Assembly: GCA_017461475.1 (NCBI GenBank)
Contig: JAFTXX010000005.1
Span: forward strand, 29,918-93,917
Length of the DNA: 64,000 nt
Reading direction: 5' to 3'
Origin: Clostridia bacterium
GTDB taxonomy: Bacteria; Bacillota; Clostridia; Oscillospirales; CAG-272
Part shown: positions 16,197 to 63,591 of the stretch, in pieces
Numbering within the stretch: position 1 is the first letter of the stretch
Layout of the letters: every line of letters starts with the position of its first letter
Made by a program: the position numbers and the translations under genes
Notes under the pieces: generated by a model
What the model saw: only the letters and a program-made list of their open reading frames with translations
Databases searched by the model: none
Told to the model about the DNA's origin: nothing

Positions 16197-16394
16197 AAAT
16201 TAATATTTAGCAAACTGCCATCTCCGCCCAAGATCCTTCGCTGACGCTCAAGGATGACAAGGGCGGGATTTAACAAAGTGTTAAAAAGCCTTTTTTATCG
16301 CATTGCAACAATCCCCGCTTGTCATCCTCGAACGTAGCGTAGCGAAGTGAAGGATCTTGCGGGGAGATGTTTGCCCCCATAAACGCTGATTTCA
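16197..16394 (+). repeat. MITE-like nested-palindrome repeat, copy 1 (long form without hairpin cassette; right end eroded)
   Basis: AAATTAATATTTAGC..CATCTCCGCCCAAGATCC..CTCAAGGATGACAAGGGCGGGAT..loop..CCCCGCTTGTCATCCTCGAAC..GGATCTTGCGGGGAGATG..AAACGCTGATTTCA. Its last 3 nt form the stop codon of the adjacent gene. Confidence 0.85.
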
Positions 16395-17672
16395 CACCAC
16401 TTTGACTATATCATACATTGCACCAAGCAGGGCGTAGTTTTGGGCGAAGGGGCGCATGATGTTCCAATAGCCTGCGCCGCGGAGGGCAAATTCGTCCATG
16501 AGGTTGAATTTTGCGAGGATACTGCGAACATCCTCAAACCAGACTACGTGGGATATGCCGCCGTCGGTATAATAGAAATACGGCGCCTTGGCGCGTTCGT
16601 CGAAAAGTATCTCTGCGCCGTACCCGGACGCTATGTCAATGGCTTCTTCGTTGCCTATTGACCGTGCGGCGGTTGAACCTTTGACATAGGGGAGCGGCCA
16701 GTCGTAGCCGTAATTGGGGATTCCGAGGATAAGTTTATCGTTTGGTATCTCGCTTACGGCATATTCGACTACTTCGCGCACGCGGTTTATCGGTGCGACA
16801 GCCATCGGCGGGCCGTAGGTGTAACCCCATTCATAGGTCATAAGGAACAGCGTGTCGGACGCGGCACCCAGGGCGGCATAGTCGTGTGCTTCGTATAGCA
16901 GACCCGCTTGTGTCGCCGAAGATTTCGGTGCGAGGTCGGTGTTTACGAAAAAGCCGTACGGCGACAGTTTTGCAACCGCGTTTTCAACAAAACCGATAAA
17001 TGCTTCCCTATCCTCGGGGGCAACAAATTCAAAGTCGATGTCAAGTCCGACATAGCCTTTCTCTATCATGGTGGCAACGATATTGTCAAGCACTTTGTTT
17101 TGCAGTTCGATATCGTTAAAAAGCACGCTTGCCTTTTCCGTGCTGAAATTGCCGTTTTCGGTAATTGAAGAAAGCAGCATTACGGGAGCGACACCGAACT
17201 TATAGGCAAGCGAAATCAGAGGTGAATCGTCAATGCCTATAAGTTCACCGTCGAGAGTAAAGCCGTAACTGAATATGGTCAGGTATGTAAGAAAAGGAAG
17301 TGCGCGGAGCAACACTGTGCGGTTGATAAACGGATATGCGTAGCCGGTTATATACACCTCACGGCGCTTTGGCACGGCGAAACTGATAACAAGTGTTTCG
17401 CCCGCAGTAAGACCTTGTGCGTCGACAAGATAGGGATTGTTTTGCAAAAGTTCTATCGGCGTGATACCTGCCGCGGCGGCGACAGAGTTTACGGTATCGC
17501 CCTGCCGCACTGTGTAGACGCGCGAGGGGTACAAAATAAGCAAAGCCTGCCCGACGACAAGGTCTTGCGACGGGCGAAGTCCGTTATCGCTGATAAGCCG
17601 CGCGGGCGATATGCCGTACTTTGCGGCTATACTGAAAATTGTTTCGCCGGGTGCTACAATATGAATTTCCAT
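16392..17672 (-). CDS. yaaH: Spore peptidoglycan hydrolase, 2x LysM + GH18 (YaaH/SleL-like)
   Basis: 426 aa. Two N-terminal LysM repeats (HIVAPGETIFSIAAKYGIS..., YTVRQGDTVNSVAAAAGIT...) and a GH18 catalytic motif GLDIDFEF. Architecture and length match Bacillus YaaH. Confidence 0.75.
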   Translation of the reverse strand: MEIHIVAPGETIFSIAAKYGISPARLISDNGLRPSQDLVVGQALLILYPSRVYTVRQGDTVNSVAAAAGITPIELLQNNPYLVDAQGLTAGETLVISFAVPKRREVYITGYAYPFINRTVLLRALPFLTYLTIFSYGFTLDGELIGIDDSPLISLAYKFGVAPVMLLSSITENGNFSTEKASVLFNDIELQNKVLDNIVATMIEKGYVGLDIDFEFVAPEDREAFIGFVENAVAKLSPYGFFVNTDLAPKSSATQAGLLYEAHDYAALGAASDTLFLMTYEWGYTYGPPMAVAPINRVREVVEYAVSEIPNDKLILGIPNYGYDWPLPYVKGSTAARSIGNEEAIDIASGYGAEILFDERAKAPYFYYTDGGISHVVWFEDVRSILAKFNLMDEFALRGAGYWNIMRPFAQNYALLGAMYDIVKVV

Positions 17673-17718
17673 ATAAAAACCTCCGCATATGCTTTTTCAA
17701 AGTATATGCGGAGGTGCG

Positions 17719-18594
17719 TTATATTGTTTCTTTCATCAACGAAATAAATGCTTTCATCGCGGGGCTTTGCCATTTGTTTTTGTGACAGATACACACCGCG
17801 GTGACGGTGTTTTTTTTCATCTCGGTGGGTATTTCCAAGAGCGTTCCTTCATTTAGTTCGCGCTCGACTGTGAAACGAGGAAGCACGGCTATGCCGACAT
17901 TGCTTTCGACACTGCGTTTTATGCCTTCGATGCCGCGAAGTTCCATGATACTGCCGAGCGAAATATCGCGGGCGGTGAGATATTGCTCAAATTGGCGAAG
18001 AAAAATGCTGTTTTTGTCCTCGACTATAAGGCATACGTTTTTGCGCGAGTGCGGCGTTATGTAGTCACGGTCGGTAAGCACAGGCGAACACACAAGCGCG
18101 AGGTCATATTCCGCGAGTTTTTCGACGCACAGGCTGTCGCCGTAACCGCCGACATCATATTGAAAGCCGCAGTCGACCGAACCGTTCATAAGCGGTTCGC
18201 GCACGGCGTAACAGTTCTGTGTCTGCAGTGAAAGACGCACCGACGGCGCCGCCTCGCGGAAGAGTTTCAGCGCTTTTTGCGATTTATATGTTAGCAGAGT
18301 TTCCGCCATTGAGATATTGAGTTCGCCTGCAAATTCGCGCAGTTCTTTGCCTTGGTTTTCGATAACAGCCATTTCGCCGAGAATGGTGTCAATGTGCGGT
18401 AAAATTTCGCGTGCCGATGCAGTCAGTGCCATGCGTCTGCCGATTTTTTCAAAGAGTTTGACAGACAATTCTTTTTCAAGTTGCTGAATCTGGAATGTCA
18501 CGGTAGACTGCGAGTAGCACAGACGCTCCGCCGCTCTGCCGAAACTTCCCTCTTCCACAATGGTTTTAAAAGTTTTAAGATATTTAAGTTCCAT
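17719..18594 (-). CDS. LysR-family transcriptional regulator
   Basis: MELKYLKTFKTIVEEGSFGRAAERLCYSQSTVTFQIQQLE wHTH domain followed by a LysR substrate-binding domain. Divergent from the LysE gene. ATG at 18594 preferred over the TTG at 18609. Confidence 0.85.
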   Translation of the reverse strand: MELKYLKTFKTIVEEGSFGRAAERLCYSQSTVTFQIQQLEKELSVKLFEKIGRRMALTASAREILPHIDTILGEMAVIENQGKELREFAGELNISMAETLLTYKSQKALKLFREAAPSVRLSLQTQNCYAVREPLMNGSVDCGFQYDVGGYGDSLCVEKLAEYDLALVCSPVLTDRDYITPHSRKNVCLIVEDKNSIFLRQFEQYLTARDISLGSIMELRGIEGIKRSVESNVGIAVLPRFTVERELNEGTLLEIPTEMKKNTVTAVCICHKNKWQSPAMKAFISLMKETI

Positions 18595-18709
18595 AAAATC
18601 CTTTAACAAAATCGAATTAACAATTCAATTAATTCAACTTTTTTAAATTGTATTTTTATGTTATTATACATACAGCGAAAGCAAATTGCAAGTCAAAGGA
18701 GAATTTTTT

Positions 18710-19300
18710 ATGAATTTCGCGGCGTTTTTTTCTTACATATTTCTTACTGCGTTTACACCCGGACCTAACAACATCATGTCGATGACAAACGCGGGTAAAT
18801 ACGGATTTAAAAAGTCTTTTCCGTTTAACCTCGGAATCTTCGCGGGATTTCTTACGGTAATGAGCGCGTGCGCCGCTTTTACTTCCCTGCTCTACAGCGT
18901 CATCCCGTCTGTTGAGCCATTTATGCTGTTCATCGGTGCCGCGTATATTTTGTGGCTTGCGTGGACTATCTGGCGAAACAAGCCGAGCAAAGGCAAAAAG
19001 GGACTTGCCGCGACGAACTCGTTTACATCGGGCATGGTTCTGCAGTTTGTCAATGTCAAAGTAATTCTCTACGGTATCACTGCGCTTTCGTCGTATGTAC
19101 TGCCGTATTATCACGGTTTTTGGTCGGTTGCGCTTTTCGTATTCATCCTCGCTTTTGTCGGCTTTGCGGGAACATGCGCGTGGGCACTGTGCGGCGCGGC
19201 GTTTGAAAAGTTTTTTGCAAAGCATGAAAAGGTGCTGAACGCAGTAATGGCTCTGCTCCTCGTATACTGCGCCGTGACCATGCTTTGGGAATTGATATAA
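18710..19300 (+). CDS. LysE/RhtB-family amino-acid exporter
   Basis: MNFAAFFSYIFLTAFTPGPNNIMSM... is a typical LysE N-terminus, with about 6 TM helices. ATG at 18710 follows AAAGGAGAA. Confidence 0.8.
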   Translation: MNFAAFFSYIFLTAFTPGPNNIMSMTNAGKYGFKKSFPFNLGIFAGFLTVMSACAAFTSLLYSVIPSVEPFMLFIGAAYILWLAWTIWRNKPSKGKKGLAATNSFTSGMVLQFVNVKVILYGITALSSYVLPYYHGFWSVALFVFILAFVGFAGTCAWALCGAAFEKFFAKHEKVLNAVMALLLVYCAVTMLWELI

Positions 19301-19314
19301 AAAAGTGTTAACGC

Positions 19315-19517
19315 TAAATAAATGTTTAGCGAAGTAACAAACATCTCCCCGCGAGATCCTTCACTTCGCTGCGCTCCGTTCGATGATGACAAGCGGGGGT
19401 TGTTACAATGCTATAAAATAAGCCTTTTCAGCACTTTGATTAATCCCGCCCTTGTCATCCTTGAGCGCAAGCGAAGGATCTCGGGCGGAGATGTTTGTAA
19501 CATAAACATTAATTTAC
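19315..19517 (-). repeat. MITE-like nested-palindrome repeat, copy 2 (long form, no cassette)
   Basis: TAAATAAATGTTTAGCGAAG..CATCTCCCCGCGAGATCC..GATGACAAGCGGGGG..loop..CCCGCCCTTGTCATCCTTGAG..GGATCTCGGGCGGAGATG..AAACATTAATTTAC. Reverse orientation relative to copy 1. Confidence 0.9.
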
Positions 19518-19520
19518 TTT

Positions 19521-19572
19521 ACAAAAAACAAAAAGCTTACAATTTCCTGAAAAACGGGCTTTGTAAGCTTTT
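19521..19572 (-). terminator. Intrinsic terminator after the FAD oxidoreductase gene
   Basis: Minus strand reads AAGCTTACAA-(18-nt loop)-TTGTAAGCTT followed by TTTGTTTTTT. Confidence 0.65.
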
Positions 19573-19610
19573 CTTATTCTAACTATCCTCGGTATTTTCA
19601 ACTGCGCCTT

Positions 19611-20792
19611 TTAAAGTTTATCGTCAAAGTGGATGCGGAAGTTGTTTTTGCGGAGTATGCCCTGAAGCTCGGTCACGTCTACATCACGGGCGGCAATGCC
19701 TTTATCAATTGCGAGTACCGCGGCGCGGGCGGCAACTTCTGCGGTCTGACATGCCACGGGGATCACGCGGACTGCGTCCCATGCGTCGCCGTGAGCGGAA
19801 ATAACTCTGCCTGCGGCAAACATATTGGGGTACTCTGGCGAGTACAGCGTGCCGTAAGGAATCTCAAACCAATAGCCCTTATGACCGAAGTACGGGCATG
19901 TGCCTACCGAATCCTCATGCGGTTTATAGAGGTCGTCCATTGTAAGTTCATAGCCGCCGACGATATGTCTTATCATGCGGAACTGCGGCATCATGGGAAG
20001 TGCTACAATTTCCTGCTCGAGCGGATCTTTTGCCTTTACCTCGTCGAGCAGCATCTGCTGACCTTTGATGAGGTAGTTATTGACCTCATCACCCGTAACG
20101 CCCGCGTAATACGGGAATCCGTCGGGATGCCCCTGCCCTGTCATACCGCTGCCGCTTACATGCCAGCCGCGGATTTTGAGCATGTTATATTCCTTGCCCT
20201 TAGCAAAGGTTGTGATATGGGTATAATACGACATAAAATTCTCGCCGTCACGGCAGGGGGCGCCCGCGCGGTGGAACATAAGGCATGTACCGCTTGCGTC
20301 TATAAGCGCGCGGCAGGAATAATACTCGGTGCCGCCTACGGTTTCAACGGATACTCCCTTTACGGTTTTGCCATCCATATCGGGATATGTAGCAAGCGCG
20401 TCATAACGGATATCCGCGCCCGCTTCAAGAAGCATTTCCTGAAGTACAAGCGACATTACCGTGGGGGAAAAGTGAGTAACAAATCTTTTATCGGTGTCCT
20501 GCTCCCACACACCTTCCTTTTGCCAGCATTCGGGTATGCGATGCATGCAGTATTTAACCGTGCGGCGCAAAATCTCCTCGGAAACTCCCGAGATAAGCTT
20601 CTTGCCCTCGGCGTTGCAAAGGGGTTCCCACCAGTTGATAAGACCTATTGTGGCAAGTCCGCCGAGCGCCGCCGCTTTTTCGAACAGAAGCGTTTTTTTG
20701 CCGTTTCTTGCCGCGGTGACAGCGGCGGCAACACCTGCGACGCCGCCGCCGACAACTACGATATCATAATCTTTTTTCAAAATGCAGTTCAT
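19611..20792 (-). CDS. FAD-dependent oxidoreductase (FAD_oxidored/GIDA-like fold)
   Basis: DIVVVGGGVAGVAAAVTAARNGKKTLLFEKAAALGG dinucleotide-binding motif. 393 aa with no signal peptide. Its start overlaps the upstream stop (TAATG). Confidence 0.7.
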   Translation of the reverse strand: MNCILKKDYDIVVVGGGVAGVAAAVTAARNGKKTLLFEKAAALGGLATIGLINWWEPLCNAEGKKLISGVSEEILRRTVKYCMHRIPECWQKEGVWEQDTDKRFVTHFSPTVMSLVLQEMLLEAGADIRYDALATYPDMDGKTVKGVSVETVGGTEYYSCRALIDASGTCLMFHRAGAPCRDGENFMSYYTHITTFAKGKEYNMLKIRGWHVSGSGMTGQGHPDGFPYYAGVTGDEVNNYLIKGQQMLLDEVKAKDPLEQEIVALPMMPQFRMIRHIVGGYELTMDDLYKPHEDSVGTCPYFGHKGYWFEIPYGTLYSPEYPNMFAAGRVISAHGDAWDAVRVIPVACQTAEVAARAAVLAIDKGIAARDVDVTELQGILRKNNFRIHFDDKL

Positions 20793-22237
20793 TATTCATC
20801 CTCCGTTGCGACGATGTCAAAAACCATCATGGAACGCATGTGCGAATAGCGGTAATTCATATCGTCATACGAAATTGAAAGTTCAAACGGGACATTGTCT
20901 CCCTCGGATGCCGCAAGTCCCGACGAGTCGTAAATTGTGAAACGGTAATTATTGGGGTTTGCGGCATCGGGATTGATGCAACCGGTAACTACGATATAAT
21001 GCGTACCGTTGTAAGAATTCTGCATGCAGACTATAACGCCCTCGGGGTGCTTGTCAAGAGCCGCTTTGAGCGACGACTTGGTAACGCCGTAAGTTTGGGT
21101 GAACGTTATAGGCTGACCGTAGAGTGAAAACGCGGATTTAAGTGGTCCGTAATTAACCAAAATCGGATTACCGTAAAGCCTGCCGCCCGCGGTTTCAAGT
21201 CCGCGGTTGCCCGTATTTGCAAGAGAGGCAACATATGGGTCTACCTCAAGATATCCGTCCGCTTCAAAGCGGAAATCGTAACCTGCGTCATATCTCGCAC
21301 CGAGATTGTGGAGTACCATCGCAATTGACGTGAGGAAACAGCCCGAGTCCATCCAGTCAAGTCCGCGATTGTAGCCGTTGATGATATAACGCTGATACGC
21401 GCCGCCCGACTGGAAATACACGCCCGAAAGTTCGCCGCCGCGCCATCCGCCTGCCATGGCAAGATGCTGACTGTACCATGTAAAGGCTTCCTCGTCGACA
21501 ACGGTAATATCAATGCTTTCGCTGATATTGCCGAGCGTTGCGGTAACTGTGGCGGTGCCGACGCCGAGCGCACAGAATGTTCCGTCGGTATCTATCATTA
21601 CGACAGACTCATCGCTCGACGACCACTTGATGTAATTCTTCATGTACGAAGGCTTGGTAACAGCGTACACAGCGCTTACGCTGTTGAGTTTGACCTCTTT
21701 GGATGTATAAACGGTTTTAAGCTGAAGTGAGGTAACTTCTGCCTTGGAAAACTCCCATTTTTGTGCATCGGCATCGGTATGCTCCTCTGCGTTGACAAGC
21801 GATTTGCCATAGAGAGTTTCGGTGCTGACCGTGAGGACTTTGCCGTCTTTATCGGCTATCACATATCCGCCGTCCGAAGCGCTTATATTAAAATATGAAG
21901 CTTCGGAAATCTCCTCGGACTTTGATATCCTGCCGCCGTCCGACAAAAAAGCGCACTTTCCCGCTTCGCTTTGCGGGTAAAACAGATATGTGCCGTCGGA
22001 CTGCTTTAAAACGAGAATATTCTCGCCCTCTTCGCCGCTTGCCGCGTCGGTATATGCATAACCGCTGTCGGAGTAGGCAAAGTCAAAAGCGTTAAGATTT
22101 TCACCGTTGTACTTATTTGTCACGGTATATATGCCGTCGTCGAGTGCGGCGGCAGGCAGCACGTCGTTTGCAAAGATGCCGAGCGCAAGGCATACGGCAA
22201 CAGCAAGAGCGAGCAAAACAAATATATATTTTCTCAA
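20792..22237 (-). CDS. Secreted protein: beta-trefoil lectin-like domain, Big_2 domain and a C39-like cysteine-peptidase domain
   Basis: Signal peptide. QKWEF (QxW) at the end of the N-terminal domain. Big_2-like IKWSSSDESVVMIDTDGTFCALGVGTATVTATLG. C-terminal DSGCFLTSIAMVLHNLG plus GTHYIVVTG, a Cys/His papain-like pair. TTG start with a GAGAGGA RBS. Confidence 0.45.
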   Translation of the reverse strand: MRKYIFVLLALAVAVCLALGIFANDVLPAAALDDGIYTVTNKYNGENLNAFDFAYSDSGYAYTDAASGEEGENILVLKQSDGTYLFYPQSEAGKCAFLSDGGRISKSEEISEASYFNISASDGGYVIADKDGKVLTVSTETLYGKSLVNAEEHTDADAQKWEFSKAEVTSLQLKTVYTSKEVKLNSVSAVYAVTKPSYMKNYIKWSSSDESVVMIDTDGTFCALGVGTATVTATLGNISESIDITVVDEEAFTWYSQHLAMAGGWRGGELSGVYFQSGGAYQRYIINGYNRGLDWMDSGCFLTSIAMVLHNLGARYDAGYDFRFEADGYLEVDPYVASLANTGNRGLETAGGRLYGNPILVNYGPLKSAFSLYGQPITFTQTYGVTKSSLKAALDKHPEGVIVCMQNSYNGTHYIVVTGCINPDAANPNNYRFTIYDSSGLAASEGDNVPFELSISYDDMNYRYSHMRSMMVFDIVATEDE

Positions 22238-22309
22238 AAAATGATCCTCTCAATCAAAACAAACGATATGAGTATTTTACCACAGTGAGCCGTAGATGTC
22301 AACCTGGCG

Positions 22310-22555
22310 AAAATTAATGTTTAGCGAAGAAGCAAACATCTCCCCGCGAGATCCTTCACTCCGCCCATACTCGCTTTGCGAGTATGGCAGGAACCTTCGG
22401 TTCCTTGTGCTCCGTTCGAGGATGACAAGCGGGGGTTGCTGCAATGCGATAAAATAAGGATTTTTTAGCACTCTGCTAAATCCCGCCCCTTGTCATCCTT
22501 AAGCGCAAGCGAAGGATCTCGGGCGGAGATGTTAGTAACATAAACATTAATTTAC
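22310..22555 (-). repeat. MITE-like nested-palindrome repeat, copy 3 (long form with two-hairpin cassette)
   Basis: Same termini and arms as copy 2, plus CCATACTCGCTTTGCGAGTATGG and AGGAACCTTCGGTTCCT at 22365-22405. Confidence 0.9.
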
Positions 22556-22574
22556 CGTACTTACTAACTAAACT

Positions 22575-22609
22575 CCCCTGCAAAATTCTCTTGCGGATTT
22601 TGCAGGGGG
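22575..22609 (-). terminator. Hairpin downstream of the VanZ gene (no clear U-tract)
   Basis: CCCCTGCAAAAT-(11-nt loop)-ATTTTGCAGGGG, a 12-bp perfect stem. Confidence 0.35.
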
Positions 22610-22625
22610 TTATGAATATACTTTG

Positions 22626-23132
22626 TCATTTGAGTGACTTTGACTGATGTTTTATTAATGCGTATGCGCATGCGAGCACAAACACGGTGCCCGCGAGGAC
22701 GCCGCAACTATCGAGTATTACATCGGTGAAAAGCGGACCGCGACCGGGAATAAAACTTTGGTGAAACTCATCGCTAGCGGCGTAGAGCGCGCCAAAGGCG
22801 ACGGGAAGAAGTGTATGCATAAGCCATGCGCGTTTATGGTAGAGCGACGCGAAAGTGAAAAAAGCGCCGAGCGTTGCATACATGCAGAAGTGCGCGATTT
22901 TGCGGATTATGTGGTCAACGTCCGAAAGCACCTCTAACCTTTCGTCGTGTCCGAGGGTTTCAAAGTTCTTGACGAAAAGCGGTGCAACAATGTCGGCGAT
23001 GCCGCCGCTTCGCTCTGCGGAAACTATTGCGGGTTCATGCGACATACAGAATATGAACATTGACAGCGCTATGCAGAGTGCAACCGCAACTGCGTAAACC
23101 TTACGCGATGAATAAGCGCTTATTTTTTGCAT
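22626..23132 (-). CDS. VanZ-like family membrane protein
   Basis: RKIAHFCMYATLG and SDEFHQSFIPGRGPLFTDVILDSCGVLAG are typical VanZ motifs. Confidence 0.75.
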   Translation of the reverse strand: MQKISAYSSRKVYAVAVALCIALSMFIFCMSHEPAIVSAERSGGIADIVAPLFVKNFETLGHDERLEVLSDVDHIIRKIAHFCMYATLGAFFTFASLYHKRAWLMHTLLPVAFGALYAASDEFHQSFIPGRGPLFTDVILDSCGVLAGTVFVLACAYALIKHQSKSLK

Positions 23133-24250
23133 CTTTGATTATACCCATCCTCGTATATCTTTTCCATCTTGCCTGTCATTATTTTGCCCGTAAGTCGGCA
23201 GATATATTTGGAATATGCGAATTTCGCCATTTCGGTGAGCTTATCGGGGTTATCCATAAGCTTTTGAACAGCTTCGGCGAGATTGGATGCGCTCTTTTGC
23301 GGGATGATATAGCCGTTTTTGCCGTTTTCAATTATGAATGCGTTTCCGCCGTAATCGGTGGCTATGGCGGGTTTTGCAAGGCTCATTGCCTCAAGAAGCG
23401 CCATGCTTGTCGCCTCGGTGCCGAACGAGCAGTTGACGATAACGTCCATTGCCTTGATATACGGCGCAACATCGCTGACAAAACCGGGAAAAAGTACACA
23501 ATCGGTGAGACCATATTCGGCGGTTTTGGCTTTCAGCTCGGCTTCGGTCGTGCCTGTGCCGATAATAAGCACTTTGAGATTATCACAGCCACGCTCATGC
23601 AAAATTCGCGCCGCTTCAATAAGGTAGATATGTCCTTTGACCTCTTCAAGGCGAGCTGACATACCGACGACAAAATCACCCTCTTTAATGCCGAGACTTT
23701 CGCGGAGCGTTGCAAGTTCTTCATCCGAAACATCGCGGAGCGGCTCGGCGCCGTTGATAACCACCTCAATCTTCTTGGGATTTGCGCCCATTGCGGTGAG
23801 GTTATCTTTGGTGGACTCCGACACGGCGATCATCTGAGTTGAAAGCGTGTTATTGATAAATCCGCAGACATTTTTAAGCGGAAACCGTGTAAGAACAGCG
23901 CGCGGCGCAAATGTGGAGTGGCGGGTGTGAATGCGCACGCGCACGCCCGAGAGAAACGCCGCTATTCTCGCCGCCATTGCCGCATGGGTATGCACAATGT
24001 CAGGCTTCTCTTTTTTGAAAATCTTGCGATACTCACTTATCGCACCGAGGTCGAGCGACTTATCGGCACCGCCGTTTGTGCATATGCACTCAAATCCGAG
24101 CGCATCAATACGGGAGATAAGCGCACTTCCCGCGGGCAGTACAACCTTTACGTCAAAGCGCGAACGGTCAATATTGCGCAAAGTTGTAAGCAATACGGTT
24201 CCCGCACCGCCGATGTTGGTATCGCTGATAACGTGAATAACTTTTATCAT
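23120..24250 (-). CDS. Glycosyltransferase family 4 (GT-B)
   Basis: MIKVIHVISDTNIGGAG N-terminus. C-terminal GT1/GT4 core (FPGFVSD..., EATSMALLEAMSLAKPAIATDYGGN). Overlaps the murJ stop by 4 nt. Confidence 0.8.
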   Translation of the reverse strand: MIKVIHVISDTNIGGAGTVLLTTLRNIDRSRFDVKVVLPAGSALISRIDALGFECICTNGGADKSLDLGAISEYRKIFKKEKPDIVHTHAAMAARIAAFLSGVRVRIHTRHSTFAPRAVLTRFPLKNVCGFINNTLSTQMIAVSESTKDNLTAMGANPKKIEVVINGAEPLRDVSDEELATLRESLGIKEGDFVVGMSARLEEVKGHIYLIEAARILHERGCDNLKVLIIGTGTTEAELKAKTAEYGLTDCVLFPGFVSDVAPYIKAMDVIVNCSFGTEATSMALLEAMSLAKPAIATDYGGNAFIIENGKNGYIIPQKSASNLAEAVQKLMDNPDKLTEMAKFAYSKYICRLTGKIMTGKMEKIYEDGYNQRCKK

Positions 24251-25773: not shown

Positions 25774-25892
25774 TTACCTCACTCCTTAATTTTTTACATT
25801 ATGTTTTAGTATATCACAAACAGCGTCCAAACGCAACATTGTGAGAAAATCATTATAAATAAAAATATTTTTAAAAATTTACAAAATTCTAC

Positions 25893-25921
25893 TTGACTTA
25901 ATGGAAATGATGTGTTATACT
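25893..25921 (+). promoter_or_regulatory. Promoter of tRNA-Pro
   Basis: TTGACT - 17 nt - TATACT, ending 16 nt before the tRNA 5' end. Confidence 0.6.
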
Positions 25922-25937
25922 TATCAAGTGCTTAAAT

Positions 25938-26013
25938 CTGGGTGTGGCGCAGTTGGTAGCGCGCTACCTTGGGGTGGTAGAGGCCGCAAGTTCAAGTCTT
26001 GTCACTCAGACCA
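25938..26013 (+). tRNA. tRNA-Pro (anticodon GGG), CCA encoded
   Basis: Hand-folded cloverleaf. Acceptor CTGGGTG/CACTCAG; D arm GCGC-AGTTGGTA-GCGC; anticodon arm CTACC-TTGGGGT-GGTAG; T arm GCAAG-TTCAAGT-CTTGT; discriminator A plus CCA. 76 nt. Confidence 0.9.
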
Positions 26014-26017
26014 GCAT

Positions 26018-26049
26018 AAAAACGGATGACTTTTGTCATCCGTTTTTTG
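26018..26049 (+). terminator. Intrinsic terminator after tRNA-Pro
   Basis: ACGGATGAC-TTTT-GTCATCCGT followed by TTTTTT. Confidence 0.85.
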
Positions 26050-26264
26050 CTTTTCTCGGTGGCGAGTTTCTTGTGACTTGCGTTGAATCCGCAAGGATTC
26101 ATCAGGGGTTGCGCAGCAAGACCTTGCAAGTCTCAAGTCTTGTCACAGGGTTGATATTTCCACTTTTCTTCTACGTACATATGAGACGACAATGTTTTCG
26201 ACCGGGTGCGCGTGCACTTGCAAGTCTTAATAATGAACTCAGCTAACATCATTTTCATTTCCTC

Positions 26265-26293
26265 TTGACTTCCCTGCTTTACGGTGCTACACT
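26265..26293 (+). promoter_or_regulatory. Candidate promoter of the GNAT gene (implies a 5' UTR of about 150 nt)
   Basis: TTGACT - 17 nt - TACACT. Confidence 0.45.
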
Positions 26294-28778: not shown

Positions 28779-28983
28779 GAAATTAATGTTTAGAGTTTAA
28801 GCAAACATCTCCCCGCGAGATCCTTCACTCCGCTGCGCTCCGTTCGAGGATGACAAGCGGGGGTTGTTGCAACACGATAAAACAAGCCTTTTTTTAGCAC
28901 TTCGTTTAATCCCGCCCCTGTCATCCTTGAGCGCAAGCGAAGGATCTTGGGCGGAGATGGTAGTAACATAAACATTAGTTTAA
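28779..28983 (-). repeat. MITE-like nested-palindrome repeat, copy 4 (long form, no cassette)
   Basis: GAAATTAATGTTTAGAG..CATCTCCCCGCGAGATCC..GATGACAAGCGGGGG..CCCGCCCCTGTCATCCTTGAG..GGATCTTGGGCGGAGATG..AAACATTAGTTTAA. Confidence 0.9.
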
Positions 28984-37730: not shown

Positions 37731-37819
37731 TAATTTTTTGTGCTTTGGCAGGCATTTTCTGCTGTGTAAATGTATAGAAAATTTGAGGTTTAGCAAAGTA
37801 ATTGCGACGCACCGGCATT

Positions 37820-37893
37820 GTAGGGGCGATTAGTAATCGCCCGCTTGTAAAACATCTACGCACAGCTTTCGGGCGATTAATAATCGCCCCTAC
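37820..37893. repeat. Inverted pair of GC-rich hairpin units (REP-like)
   Basis: GTAGGGGCGATTAGTAATCGCCCG (37820-37843) and its reverse complement with 1 mismatch, CGGGCGATTAATAATCGCCCCTAC (37870-37893). Each unit is itself a hairpin (GGGCGATTA/TAATCGCCC). Confidence 0.8.
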
Positions 37894-37933
37894 GAGGTTG
37901 GTGGATAGCCGTTACTTCACTTGCCTTTCCGCT

Positions 37934-47564: not shown

Positions 47565-47810
47565 TAAATTAATGTTTATGTTACAAACATCTCCGCCCGA
47601 GATCGCAACGCTGACGCTCAAGGATGACAAGGGCGGGATTTAGCAAAGTGCTTTAGTTGCCTTATTTTATAGCATTTCAACAACCCCCGCTTGTCATCCT
47701 CGAACGGAGCACAAGGAACCGAAGGTTCCTGCCATACTCGCAAAGCGAGTATGGGCGGAGTGAAGAATCTCGCGGGGAGATGTTTGCTTCTCCGCTAAAC
47801 ATTAATTTAC
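47565..47810 (+). repeat. MITE-like nested-palindrome repeat, copy 5 (long form with two-hairpin cassette)
   Basis: The full-length reference copy. Contains TAAATTAATGTTTATGTTACAAACATCTCCGCCCGAGATC..., the inner GATGACAAG/CTTGTCATC palindrome, the cassette at 47711-47754, and ...GAATCTCGCGGGGAGATGTTTGC..TAAACATTAATTTAC. Confidence 0.9.
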
Positions 47811-53095: not shown

Positions 53096-53108
53096 GGAGA
53101 GTGACAAG

Positions 53109-55684: not shown

Positions 55685-55699
55685 GGAGTAAACCCAAAA

Positions 55700-58138
<2,439 letters not shown>

Positions 58139-58150
58139 TCCTACAGTATT

Positions 58151-58178
58151 TATGCGTGCTGCGAAAGCGGCACGCATA
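58151..58178 (+). terminator. Hairpin after glgP; possible partial terminator
   Basis: TATGCGTGCTGC-GAAA-GCGGCACGCATA, a 12-bp stem with a GNRA loop. The T-run occurs only 6 nt downstream. Confidence 0.35.
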
Positions 58179-58226
58179 TAACTGTTTTATTACCATATTT
58201 AAAAATACATTTCATTGGAGTTTTTT

Positions 58227-60098
58227 ATGCAGCAAATTGCTATCACCAAGACCGTAAACGGCAAAGACTGCTCCGCTTCGGGCGCGTTTTGCATAAGCGA
58301 CACGCTGAAGATAACCATGAGTATCCCACGCTCAATGGAACTTGTCGACCCCTCCATGGTTATATGCCGCGACGGTCAGCGAGACAAGACACTGCTACCT
58401 TTTTACGAAGGTCAAAAAGGTGATGCGGACATTTTCACTTTCACCCTTGACCTTGAAAAAATGTGCGACTACGAATGCGACGGGCTTTTCTACTACGATC
58501 TTCGTTTTGCACAGAACCACAAAACGCTTTACACATCCAGCATCAACAATGTAGATTTTAACCTTTGCGACAGACCTTCGCGCCGTTTTTTGCTTCTGGT
58601 TTACGAAGATGGGTTCACCACTCCGAAAAATTACTACGGCACAACGATGTATCACATTTTTGTTGACCGCTTTGCAAAAAGTGAAAAGAAACTGCCCGTG
58701 CGAAATGACGCTATACTTCGCGAGGACTGGGACACCGGTATTCCGGAATTTGCCCCCTACCCCGGCGCGCCTCTCAAAAACAATCAGTTCTTCGGCGGTT
58801 CGCTTTGGGGAATTATCGAAAAGCTTGACTATCTCGAAAGTCTTTCGGTCAACTGCCTGTACTTAAGTCCCGTATTCAAAGCATATTCAAACCACAAGTA
58901 TGACACGGGCGACTACACAAAAATCGACGAGATGTTCGGCGGACGCGAAGCGTTTGACAAACTTCTTGCAGAGTGCAAAAAACGCGGCATCAAGGTGATA
59001 CTTGACGGCGTGTTCAACCACACGGGAGATGACAGCCTTTACTTCAACCGATACGGAAAATATCCGTCGCTCGGCGCTTATCAAAGCGAAAAGTCGCCCT
59101 ACAAAGAATGGTATCATTTCCTCAGATTCCCGAGTAAATACGAATGCTGGTGGGGCATTGACATTCTTCCCCGCTTAAACCACTCCTCAAAGCCGTGCAA
59201 GAATTTCTTTGTCGGCGAGGGCGGCATTTGCGAAAAGTATGTAAAAGAAGGCACCGGCGGTTGGCGACTTGACGTTGCCGACGAGCTCAGTGACACATTC
59301 CTCGACGGACTGAGAAAAGTTGTAAAAAACGCGGACAAAGACGCGCTTATCATCGGCGAAGTGTGGGAAAACGCCGCCGAAAAGGTTGCCTACGGCACCC
59401 GCCGCCGCTATCTTCGCGGCAAGCAGCTTGACAGCGTGATGAACTATCCCACAAAAAACGGTATTATCGACTATGTCAAGAGCGGTAACTGCAACATGCT
59501 TTACAACACCGTCACCGAAATCTATTCGACATATCCGCGCGCTGTCTGCGACTGCCTTATGAACCTGCTTGGCACGCACGACACTGAGAGAATTCTCACA
59601 GTGCTCGGCGGCAGGAACTCCGAGGGACTTTCAAACGCGGAGCTCTCGGAAATTCGCATGAGCGAGGACGAAAAGAAACACGCCGTTTCAATGCTGAAAA
59701 TCGCAAGCGCAATCCAGTACACGCTTTACGGTTTCCCCTCTGTTTTTTACGGCGATGAAGCAGGCATCGAAGGCTACCGCGACCCCTTCTGCCGCATGCC
59801 GTACCCGTGGGGCAGAGAATGCAAAGAACTTGTAGAGCACTACAAGGCTCTCGGCAAGATAAGAAAAGAACACAGCGTATATGCAGGCGGTGACTTCAAA
59901 GTGACCGCGCACGACGGCGGTCTGTTCGCCTTTGTCCGTGAAAGCGGCAAAGAAAAGATGCTCACCGTCACCAACCGCGCGTCTTTTGAAATAAAGTACA
60001 ATGTAGGCGCAAAGTGGCGCGACGTCATAAGCGGCGAAGTCGGCGAAGACACCGTTTCCCTGCCCAGCAATACGTTCAGGGTCTTAGAAATTTTATAA
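58227..60098 (+). CDS. GH13 alpha-amylase-family enzyme (neopullulanase/cyclomaltodextrinase-like, not a branching enzyme)
   Basis: GH13 regions I-IV: DGVFNHTG, GWRLDVADE, IIGEVWE, LLGTHDTER. ATG at 58227 follows GGAG. Confidence 0.8.
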   Translation: MQQIAITKTVNGKDCSASGAFCISDTLKITMSIPRSMELVDPSMVICRDGQRDKTLLPFYEGQKGDADIFTFTLDLEKMCDYECDGLFYYDLRFAQNHKTLYTSSINNVDFNLCDRPSRRFLLLVYEDGFTTPKNYYGTTMYHIFVDRFAKSEKKLPVRNDAILREDWDTGIPEFAPYPGAPLKNNQFFGGSLWGIIEKLDYLESLSVNCLYLSPVFKAYSNHKYDTGDYTKIDEMFGGREAFDKLLAECKKRGIKVILDGVFNHTGDDSLYFNRYGKYPSLGAYQSEKSPYKEWYHFLRFPSKYECWWGIDILPRLNHSSKPCKNFFVGEGGICEKYVKEGTGGWRLDVADELSDTFLDGLRKVVKNADKDALIIGEVWENAAEKVAYGTRRRYLRGKQLDSVMNYPTKNGIIDYVKSGNCNMLYNTVTEIYSTYPRAVCDCLMNLLGTHDTERILTVLGGRNSEGLSNAELSEIRMSEDEKKHAVSMLKIASAIQYTLYGFPSVFYGDEAGIEGYRDPFCRMPYPWGRECKELVEHYKALGKIRKEHSVYAGGDFKVTAHDGGLFAFVRESGKEKMLTVTNRASFEIKYNVGAKWRDVISGEVGEDTVSLPSNTFRVLEIL

Positions 60099-60103
60099 AA
60101 GTA

Positions 60104-60146
60104 AAAGCAGTAAGTTCAATGTGTTGAGCTTACTGCTTTGTTTTTG
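60104..60146 (+). terminator. Intrinsic terminator after the GH13 gene
   Basis: AAAGCAGTAAG-(14-nt loop)-CTTACTGCTTT followed by GTTTTT. Confidence 0.75.
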
Positions 60147-60155
60147 GGATTGAGG

Positions 60156-60308
60156 AAAATTATTGTTTATGTTACAAACATCTCCGCCCGAGATCGCAAC
60201 GCTGACGCTCAAGGAACCGAAGGTTCCTGCCATACTCGCAAAGCGAGTATGGGCGGAGTGAAGGATCTCGCGGGGAGATGTTTGCTACTCCACTAAACAT
60301 TTATTTAC
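60156..60308 (+). repeat. MITE-like repeat, copy 6 (short form: inner palindrome deleted, cassette retained)
   Basis: Same termini as copy 5. The junction GCTCAAGGA|ACCGAAGG joins the left arm directly to the cassette. Confidence 0.9.
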
Positions 60309-60355
60309 TCTTCTTTAATAATCTTAGGCTTTTTATTTATTATTACAATCTTTCT

Positions 60356-60865
60356 TCATATTTTATATACTCTGTTCGGAAGTCTTTCCGCCACGGCTCT
60401 CGGCTGCCCGTCGGGGTAACCGATGATGAGATTGCCTATGCCCTCGTAGTCGCCTTCTATGCCGAGGGAGCGGAGAATTTCTTTGCCTTCCTCGCTCTCG
60501 AACACTTCTTTTGCGCGATGTATCCAACAACTGCCGAGGTCGAGTGCGTGAGCGGCGAGCATCATGTTGCCCATGGCAAGCGAACCGTCGTAGACATAGG
60601 TAGGTTTACTTTTATCAGCGAGGACTATAAGCACGGCGGGTGCGCCGTAAAACGGGTCGATGTCCGCGCCCATCACGGCGGCGTTAAGCTTGGCAATGCG
60701 GTCGCGCATTGCTTTATCGGTGACGGCGACAATGATAGGCGACTGCCAGTTGCGTCCGTTTGCCGCGTAGAGACCCGCGTTTATGATTTTATCAATGATT
60801 TCTGCGGGAGGCATGGTCGGTTTATAACACTTTGTGCTTCTGCGGGACATTATTTTTTCGTACAT
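60356..60865 (-). CDS. Nitroreductase-family protein
   Basis: IMSRRSTKCYKPT..., GLYAANGRNWQSP, and a C-terminal ...IGYP motif. The start overlaps the copA 3' end; an alternative ATG at 60850 forms TAATG with the copA stop. Confidence 0.8.
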   Translation of the reverse strand: MYEKIMSRRSTKCYKPTMPPAEIIDKIINAGLYAANGRNWQSPIIVAVTDKAMRDRIAKLNAAVMGADIDPFYGAPAVLIVLADKSKPTYVYDGSLAMGNMMLAAHALDLGSCWIHRAKEVFESEEGKEILRSLGIEGDYEGIGNLIIGYPDGQPRAVAERLPNRVYKI

Positions 60866-63321
60866 ATTTCTTTTACCTTGTACCCTTCTGCCTCTACGGC
60901 TTTTTTCAGTTTATTGTCAGCAACATCTGCACTCAGTTTGACTGTTGCAATGCCATCCTTGTGGCTTGCGGCGGCTTCGGTAACGCCGCTCAGAGCTTCA
61001 AGGCACTTTTTAACTGCCGCTTCGCAGTGACCGCACATCATACCTTCGATTTTAATTTCTTTTTCAAGCGTTACCGCGGCGGCGCTTTCGGCTCGCTTAT
61101 CGGCTTTAAAGAAATTGAGACGCAACGCATTCATAACGACGCAAAAGCTCGAAAGGCTCATTGCCGCCGCGCCGAACATGGGGTCCATTTCAAGTCCGAA
61201 AAGGGGTATCCAAACGCCCGCGGCGAGAGGTATGCCAATGATGTTGTATATAAACGCCCAGAAGAGATTCTCACGGATGTTGCGCAGAGTTTTGCGGCTG
61301 AGACGCACCGCAGAAACCGCGTCAACAAGACTTGAGTGCATAAGCACGACATCTGCCGCGTCTATAGCTACGTCTGCACCCGCGCCTATGGCGATACCTA
61401 TATCGGCACTTGTAAGTGCGGGCGCGTCGTTTATGCCGTCGCCGACCATTGCCACCATACCGCCCACGGAAAGCTCCTTTACGGCTTCGGCTTTATTCTG
61501 CGGGAGAATGCCGGCGCGTACTTCGTCAATGCCTACTTTTTCGGCAATGGCTTTGGCGGTGCGCTCGTTGTCACCCGTAAGCATGACTGTGCGTATGCCG
61601 AGCGATTTAAACGCTTTAATTGCGGCGGCGCTGTCCTCTTTTACTGTGTCAGCTACCGCTATGATGCCGATATATTTTCCGCCATGGCAGAACATAATGG
61701 GGGTTTTACCCTCAGATGCGAGTTTTTCCGCGGCTGAAACGGTCTCTGTGGTGAGATTTACGAGGGATGAAATGTAGCTCAGGCTGCCGCCGTGTGCGGT
61801 TTCGCCGTTAACATTTGCAGTGAGACCTTTGCCTGCTACGGCTTCAAAATTCTCACTGTCGGGAGCGGCAATTCCCTTCTCCGCGGCGTATGCAATAACC
61901 GCTTTGCCGAGAGGATGTTCACTTTTGCTTTCAAGAGATGCGGCGATTGAGACAAGCTCGGTTTCGGTGGTACCGCACGGAATCACATCGGTGACGCTTG
62001 GCTCGCCGCGGGTTATGGTGCCTGTTTTATCAAGTGCAACTACTTTAACTTTACCCGTCTGTTCAAGTGATGCGGCGGTTTTGAAAAGTATACCGTTCTT
62101 TGCACCGACGCCGCTTGCAACCATTATGGCAACGGGAGTTGCCAGTCCCAGTGCGCAGGGGCAACTGATGACAAGTACAGAAATTCCGCGAGCAAGTGCA
62201 AATCCTACAGTCTGCCCCGCAAACATCCATACAGCAAATGTTATTGCGGCTATGGCGATTACCGTGGGAACGAAAATACCCGAAACTTTATCCGCCATTT
62301 TTGCAACTGGCGCCTTGGTTGCCGCCGCGTCGCTTACCATTTTGATAATGCCCGAAAAAGTGGTATCTTCTCCGACATGAGTGGCTTCGCAGGTGAGAAA
62401 TCCCGATTTGTTTATTGTTGCGGCATACACATGCGAGCCGACAGTTTTATCAACGGGAAGGCTTTCTCCCGTTAGCGCGGACTCGTCAACGGCTCCGCCG
62501 CCGTCTGCGAGAATGCCGTCGCACGGGATGCTTTCTCCGGGGCGAACCACAAAGATATCGCCTCTGTTAACATCGGAAACGGGAACTGTTATTTCCTTGC
62601 CGTCGCGTATGACATTTGCGGTTTTGGGTGCAAGGCGCATGAGACCTTTGAGCGCGTCGGTGGTCTTGCCTTTTGCGCGTGCTTCAAGCATTTTGCCGAC
62701 GGTGATAAGCGTTAAAATCATCGCCGCGGACTCAAAATAAAGTCCGTGCAATGAATGCATAGCTTCCTCGGCGGTTTGTGCCGTCATAAGAAACAACACG
62801 ACGGTACTGTATCCGAACGCCGCCGCCGAACCGAGCGCGACAAGCGTATCCATATTGGGCGCACCTTTGACAAGTCCTTTGAAGCCGCTGACGAAGAATT
62901 TGCCGTTGATTATCATAACGGCAATTGTGAGCAGCATTTGCGCCATTGCGGTAGCTACGGGGTTGCCTTCAAAAAATGCGGGCAGCGGCCATCCCCACAT
63001 ACTGTGCCCCATAGAGATGTACATGAGAAGCGCCAAAAAGCCAACCGATGTCACAAGTCGGCGGACAAGCTTTGGCGTTTCGGTGTCTTTTAGTTCATCC
63101 TCAGCGGCTGTTTTTTGTTTTGAGCCTTTTTTCGATGCACCGTAGCCTGCGGCTACTACTGCGGCGATGATTTCCTGTTCGGTTGCGGTACCGCTTACGT
63201 TCATTGAATTAGTCAAAAGGTTGACTGAACATTCGGTGACATTTTCAAGTGCGGAAACGGCTTTTTCAACGCGCGCACTGCACGCGGCACAGCTCATTCC
63301 CGTTACATTATACTGTTCCAT
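60850..63321 (-). CDS. copA: Copper-translocating P1B-type ATPase with N- and C-terminal HMA domains
   Basis: N-terminal GMSCAACSARV, TM CPCALGLATP, DKTGTIT, GDGINDAP, and a C-terminal second HMA IEGMMCGHCEAAV. Confidence 0.9.
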   Translation of the reverse strand: MEQYNVTGMSCAACSARVEKAVSALENVTECSVNLLTNSMNVSGTATEQEIIAAVVAAGYGASKKGSKQKTAAEDELKDTETPKLVRRLVTSVGFLALLMYISMGHSMWGWPLPAFFEGNPVATAMAQMLLTIAVMIINGKFFVSGFKGLVKGAPNMDTLVALGSAAAFGYSTVVLFLMTAQTAEEAMHSLHGLYFESAAMILTLITVGKMLEARAKGKTTDALKGLMRLAPKTANVIRDGKEITVPVSDVNRGDIFVVRPGESIPCDGILADGGGAVDESALTGESLPVDKTVGSHVYAATINKSGFLTCEATHVGEDTTFSGIIKMVSDAAATKAPVAKMADKVSGIFVPTVIAIAAITFAVWMFAGQTVGFALARGISVLVISCPCALGLATPVAIMVASGVGAKNGILFKTAASLEQTGKVKVVALDKTGTITRGEPSVTDVIPCGTTETELVSIAASLESKSEHPLGKAVIAYAAEKGIAAPDSENFEAVAGKGLTANVNGETAHGGSLSYISSLVNLTTETVSAAEKLASEGKTPIMFCHGGKYIGIIAVADTVKEDSAAAIKAFKSLGIRTVMLTGDNERTAKAIAEKVGIDEVRAGILPQNKAEAVKELSVGGMVAMVGDGINDAPALTSADIGIAIGAGADVAIDAADVVLMHSSLVDAVSAVRLSRKTLRNIRENLFWAFIYNIIGIPLAAGVWIPLFGLEMDPMFGAAAMSLSSFCVVMNALRLNFFKADKRAESAAAVTLEKEIKIEGMMCGHCEAAVKKCLEALSGVTEAAASHKDGIATVKLSADVADNKLKKAVEAEGYKVKEICTKK

Positions 63322-63359
63322 TTATTTGCAAACTCCTAAGTTAGTTACTGCTTACTTAA

Positions 63360-63388
63360 ATTGTAGCCTTGTTTGAGCAATTTGTCAA
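63360..63388 (-). promoter_or_regulatory. copA promoter
   Basis: TTGACA - 17 nt - TACAAT on the minus strand. The -35 lies in one arm of the inverted repeat TTGTCAAG-N9-CTTGACAA (63382-63406). Confidence 0.6.
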
Positions 63389-63429
63389 GGGTATATACTT
63401 GACAAGTGTGGTAAAATTAAAATGAAAGA

Positions 63430-63591
63430 AAAATTAATGTTTATGTTACTAACATCTCCGCCCGAGATCGCAACGCTAACGCTCAAGGATGACAAGGAAC
63501 CGAAGGTTCCTGCCATACTCGCAAAGCGAGTATGGCAGGAGTGAAGGATCTCGCGGGGAGATGTTTGCTTCTTCGCTAAACATTAATTTAC
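63430..63591 (+). repeat. MITE-like repeat, copy 7 (short form, a different deletion junction, cassette retained)
   Basis: Junction GGATGACAAGG|AACCGAAGG. Termini AAAATTAATGTTTATG... and ...TAAACATTAATTTAC. Ends 13 nt before the tcdA RBS. Confidence 0.9.

Follow-up and report, generated by a model that had tools for sequence, protein, structure and literature searches.

The 64-kb stretch of DNA analysed here (henceforth, the window) carries seven copies of a small, non-coding, nested-palindrome repeat, which we label c1 to c7 by position; an eighth copy, c8, lies outside the window. The proteins encoded in the window are identical to those of the NCBI series MBQ88362xx, annotated as "MAG: Clostridia bacterium" on a 99.6-kb contig, that is, a metagenome-assembled genome (MAG) from the ruminant gut, and the genes are ordinary chromosomal ones: a phosphotransferase system (PTS), a glycyl-radical enzyme, the Rnf complex, glycogen synthesis and dockerin-bearing glycoside hydrolases. 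We consider it probable that the repeats dispersed between these genes are non-autonomous DNA elements of 153-246 bp, similar to transposable elements of the miniature inverted-repeat type (MITEs) and mobilised in trans. A dispersed, non-coding, MITE-like family of nested palindromes had been proposed from the letters of the window alone, and the sharp boundaries of the repeat, the orthologous sites that hold the element in one species and lack it in others, and the agreement between assemblies bear out this original prediction. The copies are as follows.

c1, 16197..16394, plus strand: 198 nt, A-B-A' without module C; the most diverged copy (78-85% identical to the others), right end degenerate
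c2, 19315..19517, minus strand: 203 nt, without module C
c3, 22310..22555, minus strand: full length, 246 nt, A-B-C-A'
c4, 28779..28983, minus strand: 205 nt, without module C
c5, 47565..47810, plus strand: full length, 246 nt
c6, 60156..60308, plus strand: 153 nt; module B deleted at the microhomology CAAGGA
c7, 63430..63591, plus strand: 162 nt; module B deleted elsewhere, at the microhomology ACAAGG

The 17-nt arm pattern GATCTYGCGGGGAGATG (the arm sequence is also written CATCTCCGCCCGAGATC), with up to 2 mismatches allowed, has 14 matches in the window compared to 0.04 expected by chance, and these are the two arms of each of the seven elements, an exact or near-exact right arm and a two-mismatch left arm. 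The 14-nt, AT-rich terminal repeat, another predicted feature, has 13 matches, every one within the seven copies, against 0.93 expected. A nhmmer profile built from the seven copies and run on the window recovers the same seven and none further at E<=1, and a search for repeats returns the family at the positions listed above, in the form of interlocking direct and inverted repeats, so that the predicted coordinates, checked by nhmmer and by the arm and terminal-repeat counts, are accurate to within 1 nt. Both orientations occur, as anticipated, with four copies on the plus strand (c1, c5, c6 and c7) and three on the minus strand (c2, c3 and c4). Pairwise identity among the copies is 78-96%. 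The full-length eighth copy (L142:3495-3740; loci outside the window are given by L numbers), found in a 9.3-kb rightward extension, 6 kb past the right edge of the window, is 98.4% identical to c3, and this closeness appears to be a sign of recent activity or conversion. An 8.3-kb leftward extension holds no further copy. The density measured in the host species is 8 copies per about 82 kb; the predicted great abundance throughout the genome is an extrapolation from such figures. Copy size, 153-246 nt in the window, reaches about 335 nt in relatives, and no open reading frame (ORF) is common to the whole family.

The anatomy is best described on c5 (47565-47810, 246 nt), which serves as the reference copy:

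47565..47578, plus strand: left terminal inverted repeat, TAAATTAATGTTTA
47579-47584, plus strand: left spacer, short
47585..47604, plus strand: left subterminal arm, AAACATCTCCGCCCGAGATC
47617..47705, plus strand: module B, with the inner hairpin CTCAAGGATGACAAGGGCGGG ... CCCCGCTTGTCATCCTCGAAC
47714..47754, plus strand: module C, 41 nt, two small hairpins, GGAACCGAAGGTTCC and CCATACTCGCAAAGCGAGTATGG
47766..47785, plus strand: right subterminal arm, (G)ATCTCGCGGGGAGATGTTT, first base A in c5
47786-47795, plus strand: right spacer, 10-11 nt
47796..47809, plus strand: right terminal inverted repeat, TAAACATTAATTTA

The AT-rich terminal inverted repeats are 13-14 bp long, and in the alignment of the seven copies, homology breaks off sharply, with (T)AAATTAATGTTTA as the left boundary and TAAACATTAATTT(A) as the right one. 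The predicted ATGTTT...AAACAT hairpins are found at both ends of the element, and about 20 nt inward of each end lie the 20-bp subterminal inverted arms, flanked by AAAC/GTTT. In 7/7 copies, the left arm departs from the right-arm pattern at two fixed positions and no others, as had been noticed from the first reading of the window. The 17-nt arm cores are near-palindromic themselves (ATCTC-CGCCC-GAGAT on the left and ATCTC-GCGGG-GAGAT on the right, each with a 5-bp stem), and the two fixed mismatches fall in the 5-nt centre of this dyad, ATCTC-N5-GAGAT. The bases at these positions permit perfect local alternatives to arm-arm pairing, namely, left-arm CCGCCC with GGGCGG of module B, and CCCCGC of module B with right-arm GCGGGG. 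The interior consists of self-contained hairpins that vary between copies. Module B is present in five copies (c1-c5), wholly absent from c6 and represented by its first bases only in c7, so that the second, inner palindrome ascribed to the family holds for five of the seven; module C is present in c3, c5, c6 and c7 only and missing from c1, c2 and c4. The losses of module B in c6 and c7 are two independent, slippage-type deletions: their end points differ, and each lies at its own short direct repeat.

The dyad symmetry of the arms, with fixed mismatches in the 5-nt centre that would encode orientation as in imperfect repetitive extragenic palindromic (REP) sequences, recalls REPINs (REP doublets forming hairpins) and bacterial interspersed mosaic elements (BIMEs). 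Under such a reading, which we regard as unlikely, the 17-nt arms would be inverted REP units around a variable spacer, folding as single-stranded DNA, duplicated by a single-copy HUH tyrosine transposase (REP-associated tyrosine transposase, RAYT) encoded elsewhere and inherited mostly vertically. Conserved arms around a spacer that is highly variable within and between species fit the published picture of REPINs (bioRxiv 10.1101/2021.07.10.451892). However, the unit runs about 25 nt past the arms to defined terminal inverted repeats that co-vary between species and survive alone, and REPINs have no such ends; moreover, the arm hairpin is weak, with its 5-bp stem, and the elements, at 153-335 nt, exceed the typical ~100 nt.

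Five independent assemblies or samples of the host species carry the same copies at identical positions, and therefore the copies are not assembly artefacts, an alternative that the original prediction had allowed for; Logan short-read contigs end inside the repeat. In a scan of one genome for each of 185,579 species, the 21-nt arm was found in only two MAGs, RGIG4012 from roe deer caecum and RGIG1777 from goat caecum. Their coding DNA is about 70-76% identical to that of the window, and their copies are diverged, carry additional hairpin modules and occupy other loci. The end sequences in these relatives differ from those in the window, and in several copies, both ends are still mutual inverted repeats. 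The presence of the family in three related species is also consistent with the vertical persistence expected of REPINs. Searches farther afield brought nothing related: the 17-nt arm picked out 110 stretches in the JGI metagenomes, none with the element by BLAST and all chance 17-mers, and a single 17-mer match, also due to chance, among IMG/VR viral contigs; BLAST against plasmids and phages gave no relevant match; a full-text literature search with five signature strings was likewise negative; and Rfam at the gathering score recognised only a tRNA-Pro in the window, with three noise matches over c5 at E<=10. The family is thus undescribed as far as Rfam, plasmids, phages and the published sequence strings searched are concerned. 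It occurs only in a small clade of uncultured Clostridia of the ruminant gut, and is a new, lineage-restricted family within a well-known class of bacterial repeats (PMC10969869, PMC3184786), not a new kind of system.

Five copies (c1, c2, c3, c4 and c6) lie 10-20 nt 3' of genuine intrinsic terminators. Specifically, c1 begins 13 nt past the terminator of a VanY/dockerin gene, c2 lies 10 nt past that of a FAD-oxidoreductase gene, c4 lies 16 nt past that of ApbE, and c6 lies 10 nt past that of an amylase gene; c3 is flanked by the VanZ terminator and by the conserved TTGACA..TAAAAT promoter of a Big_2 gene. As for the other two, c5 is situated 10 nt from the stop codon of LarA and 24 nt from the start of the glycerate kinase gene (glxK), and c7 lies between the operator/promoter region of a copper-ATPase and the start of a ThiF-like gene, 24 nt away. 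Just before c7, the divergent ThiF-like gene has an extended -10 element, TGTGGTAAAAT, so that c7 would lie in the 5' leader of this gene. Upstream of the copper P-type ATPase, we also identified a perfect palindromic operator-like site, TTGTCAAG-N8-CTTGACAA (63383-63406), which is conserved in the sister species described below. All copies are intergenic, as claimed at the outset, except for 3 nt: the last bases of c1, at its decayed right end, double as the stop codon of the convergent GH18 gene (16392-16394). The suggestion of terminating hairpins does not hold in the sense of canonical terminators: the 3' arm ends in ...AAACATTAATTTA(C), no T-run or U-tract follows the stem, as it would in an intrinsic terminator or a SPRITE, and the five copies sit behind separate, genuine terminators. 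The left end points towards the terminator in 5/5 terminator-adjacent copies; as a general rule of orientation, this was rejected because c5, the eighth copy, and the copies L003 and L011 of the relatives break it. Public gene calling places an 86-aa ORF inside c2 (window 19241-19501 region; L016:11211-11471), and hence these repeats yield spurious protein predictions in MAG annotations.

Comparison with the relatives reveals sites that lack the element. The c3 site is empty in five loci of relatives (L019-L025; FAD-oxidoreductase 83-87% identical), where the VanZ-Big_2 spacer measures 73-92 nt and the TTGACA...TAAAAT promoter is kept right at the c3 junction. The c4 site is empty in a sister species (L145), with 27 nt between conserved flanks that cannot be aligned, and the RGIG4012 locus L002 has no copy near the end of the ApbE gene. 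At the c5 site, RGIG1777 has a LarA-glxK spacer of 62 nt, and an RGIG4012-like contig and the sister species carry other sequences. The sister species, whose FAD-oxidoreductase is 92% identical to that of the window and whose DNA is about 78% identical, has no full-length copy in the 42 kb syntenic with c2-c7. The flanks of c7 align with it base for base, and in place of the 162-nt element, there is a site with exactly TAAATTAATGTTT, the 13-nt terminal repeat standing solo (L145:12159-12171). A base-level empty-site junction is available for c7 only; synteny around c2, c3 and c6 differs in the relatives. The search for empty sites that accompanied the original prediction as a proposed check was thus successful for c3, c4, c5 and c7. 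The reverse case is found as well: a copy in RGIG4012 lies upstream of a PRD-antiterminator gene, where the window has unrelated sequence. Furthermore, 15 nt past the GalT terminator, the sister species has a mini-hairpin of 41-43 nt (L147:13792-13834) that consists of the two ends only, GTAAATTAATGTTTATGCGC-ATA-GCGCATAAACATTAATTTAC, and forms a perfect 19-bp hairpin; the window lacks it at the orthologous site.

Rearrangements in this region touch several copies. Relative to all relatives, c2 lies at a synteny breakpoint. In the sister species (L145/L147), the genes for ThiF, copA and nitroreductase directly follow the FAD-oxidoreductase gene; in the window, they are 40 kb away from it, beside c6 and c7; and on the downstream side of the FAD-oxidoreductase gene, each relative examined has something else (glgB, sigma70/LRR, AraC or an SSF transporter). 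Given that the rearrangement breakpoints coincide with c2, c6 and c7, the dispersed copies probably act as substrates for recombination, with repeat-mediated rearrangement as the likely outcome. Because each species has sites of its own and the breakpoints match the ends of the element, the overall pattern fits a mobile element and its remnants, and is unlike that of a conserved regulatory RNA. This pattern also bears on the comparison with REPINs: the loci differ from species to species and the sister species is devoid of copies at all syntenic sites, which points to a turnover faster than that of REPINs.

Prokaryotic MITEs are defined as elements of less than 500 bp with terminal inverted repeats of 4-30 bp, located at AT-rich intergenic sites and giving rise to stable stem-loop transcripts (PMC10969869). 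Save for a demonstrated target duplication and a partner insertion sequence (IS), the family conforms to this published structural definition, with its small size without coding capacity, terminal inverted repeats at sharp boundaries, dispersal in both orientations and orthologous presence and absence between species. From the structure and boundaries of the repeat, its copy number, the species-specific occupancy of sites, the modular insertions and deletions, and the remnants, we infer movement mediated by a transposase. Under this scenario, the terminal repeats and the arms would be recognition sites for a transposase or recombinase that acts in trans and is encoded at another place in the genome, and the element would insert into AT-rich intergenic DNA, often just behind intrinsic terminators, with a target duplication that would amount to TA at most. 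After insertion, the palindrome would change by slippage-type deletion and by gain of hairpin modules, and copies would eventually decay to solo ends or to end-to-end mini-hairpins.

Several observations weigh against this scenario of trans-mobilised elements. No direct repeat longer than 2 bp lies beside any of the 8 copies, such that the proposed check for target-site duplications yielded nothing beyond a possible TA, and the flanking TA, seen at 5/8 left ends and 5/8 right ends, cannot be told apart from the palindromic end. The empty sites all belong to other species, at a nucleotide identity of about 70-80%, and no presence/absence polymorphism was seen within the host species. In the roughly 0.4 Mb of the clade inspected, neither an autonomous element nor a transposase with such ends came to light. 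Finally, across species, the arms and CCCCCGCTTGTCATCCT, the 3' half of module B, are better conserved than the extreme ends, which one would not usually see in a selfish element in decay and which may point to a function that depends on the sequence, with the proviso that the conservation of the right arm is, in part, an ascertainment effect, given that the copies were found via a right-arm search. The precise empty site of c7 in the sister species itself contains 13 nt of the element end. Duplication of a fixed target, TAAATTAATTTA, in the form of a 6-bp palindrome (ATTAAT), was considered and rejected because the left and right variants at c2, c6 and c8 mismatch as direct repeats.

With regard to a partner enzyme, Pfam searches of all sizeable ORFs in the window gave no transposase or recombinase domain, in agreement with the original prediction, and those of 20 ORFs beside 12 related copies gave no transposase. 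The RAYT family, PF01797, appears neither among the examined ORFs nor in the precomputed Pfam lists for about 150 kb of related contigs. Under the REPIN-like reading, the absence of a clear target duplication would be expected, and a GTAG/CTAC doublet at 37818-37895 indicates that REP-type repeats may occur in this genome; however, no Y1 transposase lies near any copy examined, no GTAG-type 5' tetranucleotide adjoins the arms, and the RAYTs associated with REPINs have so far been found mainly in Proteobacteria (bioRxiv 10.1101/2021.07.10.451892). Nor does the family resemble the IS200/IS605-derived PATEs, which have subterminal hairpins but lack terminal inverted repeats and insert 3' of a fixed target of 4-5 nt, given its clear terminal inverted repeats and left flanks with no conserved tetra- or pentanucleotide. 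Two further candidates were tried: Xer/dif-like core sites at the ends were set aside, as the spacers are unequal (7 vs 11 nt), and integron attC sites were rejected, there being no R'/R'' boxes and no cassette context.

Among known systems, the closest functional analogues are the Correia, ERIC, RUP/BOX and QMITE elements (PMC3184786, PMC3049150). The Correia elements of Neisseria (CREE/NEMIS), hundreds of intergenic copies of which have been described, are likewise non-coding, about 100-160 bp long, with terminal inverted repeats and TA at the junction, occur in long and short forms that differ by internal deletion, give transcripts that form long hairpins and have been linked to rearrangements (PMC10969869; PMC3184786). 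There is, however, no sequence similarity; the family described here has AT-rich ends of 13-14 bp and a second set of conserved 20-bp arms about 20 nt inside, its TA duplication is only possible, its host is a Gram-positive anaerobe, and the integration host factor (IHF) site, the outward promoter and the RNase III processing are features of the Correia side. ERIC/IRU and the enterobacterial repeats RU-1/2/3 share with it the imperfect palindromes (about 127 bp), the larger variants with internal insertions at fixed positions and the intergenic location; they are often transcribed, and their mobilising enzyme is not known either (PMC2759123; PMC3184786). Again, the sequences are unrelated, and whereas ERIC is common to many genera at conserved sites, the present family occupies species-specific sites in few species. 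The pneumococcal BOX, RUP and SPRITE repeats are similarly modular (boxA-B-C), hairpin-rich, small intergenic repeats in a Firmicute that cluster and nest, and one of them, RUP, is a MITE that targets TA and owes its movement to an IS630-type transposase (PMC3049150; PMC10969869). Here, in contrast, there is no sequence similarity to these repeats, no tandem module of the boxB type, no T-tract terminator signature of SPRITE and no IS630 partner identified. REPINs and BIMEs resemble the family in the arrangement of conserved, inverted short palindromes (in the family, near-palindromic arms) around a variable spacer, the extragenic location, the lack of an obvious target duplication and the persistence in a lineage (bioRxiv 10.1101/2021.07.10.451892), but the family differs from them by its extra terminal inverted repeats outside the arms, its greater length, the missing GTAG, its faster turnover of sites and the lack of a RAYT in the searches. 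The QMITE1 and QMITE2 elements of Coxiella and Chunjie of Geobacter are also size-heterogeneous MITEs (39-400 bp) whose truncated copies have lost ends and look REP-like, and their transcripts fold at about -113 kcal/mol (PMC10969869); unlike the present family, in which there is none beyond TA, they have clear direct repeats of 7-9 bp.

The predicted folds of the present family are very stable as well. Each copy forms one long branched hairpin on either strand, at about -68 to -110 kcal/mol (z -8 to -12); the minimum free energy (MFE) of c5 RNA is -104.7 kcal/mol (z -9.4), and that of c6 is -67.6 kcal/mol (z -7.9). Such extreme stability on both strands is what would be expected if the repeat were a host-selected structured RNA or a DNA-binding module, with mobility secondary or extinct: the transcribed branched hairpin would stabilise, process or terminate neighbouring mRNAs, or the arms would bind a host protein. 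We hold this to be decidedly unlikely. The locations of c5 inside the probable LarA-glxK transcript and of c7 in the probable ThiF-like 5' leader accord with an RNA role, but the transcript context is inconsistent over the family, with five copies behind terminators, c7 in a leader and c5 between cistrons, in both orientations relative to transcription; no conservation of sites is seen from species to species, copies can do without module B or module C, no U-tract that would make a canonical terminator follows the stem, and Rfam gave no match to the repeat even at E<=10.

At arm pair 36-210, five copies have GC, c1 has AU and c4 has AC, so that the change from G-C to A-T, noticed previously as compensated in c1 and uncompensated in c4, is real; as an argument for a selected structure, the single compensatory change in c1 is overstated, being too little to carry it. 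Within the window, double changes affect 2/69 predicted pairs and several substitutions break pairs, which argues against an RNA role. Across species, two diverged copies, L007 (CTGCCC/GGGCAG) and L001 (ATTC/GAAT), maintain by double changes the local pairing of the left arm with module B, and CCCCCGCTTGTCATCCT is nearly invariant over three species and its pairing partner varies. The retention of the left one of the two perfect alternative pairings, along with the constancy of CCCCCGCTTGTCATCCT and the arms over three species in the face of varying partners, would be compatible with selection on RNA, but palindrome arms can co-evolve through conversion at the DNA level without any function of the RNA. 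We take the cross-species pairing and the constancy of CCCCCGCTTGTCATCCT as suggestive of constraint, though also compatible with homogenisation of the palindrome at the DNA level; the estimate of cross-species conservation is affected by the way the copies were ascertained. UNCG tetraloops, tried as a signature of the RNA strand, were rejected, as the loop registers are mostly triloops.

In each relative, the LarA-glxK spacer, the place of c5 in the window, contains a nested palindrome of another kind. These palindromes, and a further array at another locus, are built from a short repeated linker and small hairpins:

L147:9773-10000, sister species, LarA-glxK spacer: 228 nt; 7-nt linker GCGATAT/ATATCGC and unrelated small hairpins; MFE -82 kcal/mol, z -6.8
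L136:2913-3130, RGIG4012-like contig, LarA-glxK spacer: 218 nt; linker CATGATTTG/CAAATCATG; MFE -84 kcal/mol, z -4.5
L139:3371-3432, RGIG1777, LarA-glxK spacer: 62 nt; one linker-plus-hairpin unit only
L009:4772-4945, further array: linker ATGATAT/ATATCAT; between two terminators, beside a tRNA

No linker-plus-hairpin arrays were detected in the window. That three sister species have three unrelated nested palindromes of similar size in the same spacer could be taken as a point in favour of the RNA role discussed above. It also raises the question of whether the elements themselves are built up in place, through successive insertion of mini-palindromes into hairpins, with the outer AT-rich hairpin as the oldest layer. 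As an account of the family, this seems very improbable to us. The outer layer does exist alone in the sister species, as the perfect 19-bp hairpin; all interior modules are self-contained hairpins, and relatives carry different extra ones at several interior positions; and the arrays at L147:9773-10000, L136:2913-3130 and L009:4772-4945 combine a repeated linker of 7-9 nt with unrelated hairpins, as would be expected of such growth. Nevertheless, the mini-hairpin is explained equally well as a collapsed remnant, the loss of module B from c6 and c7 by microhomology deletion implies that size variation is, in part, loss, no module stands solo in the window, and no mechanism or enzyme has been identified.

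A broader version of the idea, under which the clade would possess a general mechanism for building nested palindromes, with hairpin modules or whole elements repeatedly inserted into or beside hairpins, strikes us as distinctly improbable, even if it would explain the layered anatomy of outer hairpin, arms, module B and module C, the extra hairpin modules in the relatives and the three unrelated LarA-glxK palindromes. If it were true, the object of study would be a hairpin- or cruciform-targeting mobile system, or else a host-selected, structured spacer with fast turnover, and not an ordinary cut-and-paste MITE. The LarA-glxK palindromes and the layered make-up of the family constitute the most unusual loose end of this analysis.

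The trans-mobilised, MITE-like family that we favour matters in the first place for the assembly and annotation of MAGs of rumen and hindgut Clostridia, where it breaks short-read contigs, spawns spurious ORFs and marks rearrangement breakpoints. It also adds an example from a Gram-positive anaerobe to the small set of bacterial MITE and REP-like families, and its clear modular hairpin anatomy, together with the fixed asymmetry of the arms, could help identify the mobilising enzyme. It would be worth more if the arms served as a site for protein binding or for single-strand recognition, or if nested build-up were real.

Three features of the window lie outside the family. The apparently ORF-free 1.7 kb at its left edge (1-1424, minus strand) is ptsI (PTS enzyme I) running off the window, as a same-species contig (L144) makes clear. 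A strongly folding intergenic segment, 10971-11073, upstream of a SipL-domain gene, is 83% identical to L145:11205-11309 of the sister species, which sits downstream of the FAD-oxidoreductase gene, and is another small relocated intergenic block. Lastly, the doublet at 37818-37895, GTAG-GGGCGATTAGTAATCGCCC ... GGGCGATTAATAATCGCCC-CTAC, located in the spacer between rnfC and its upstream gene, represents a second, unrelated small repeat family of the REP/REPIN-like type; its 19-mer has 2 matches in the window, compared to 0.02 expected, and one more 9 kb outside (L142:5534-5552).

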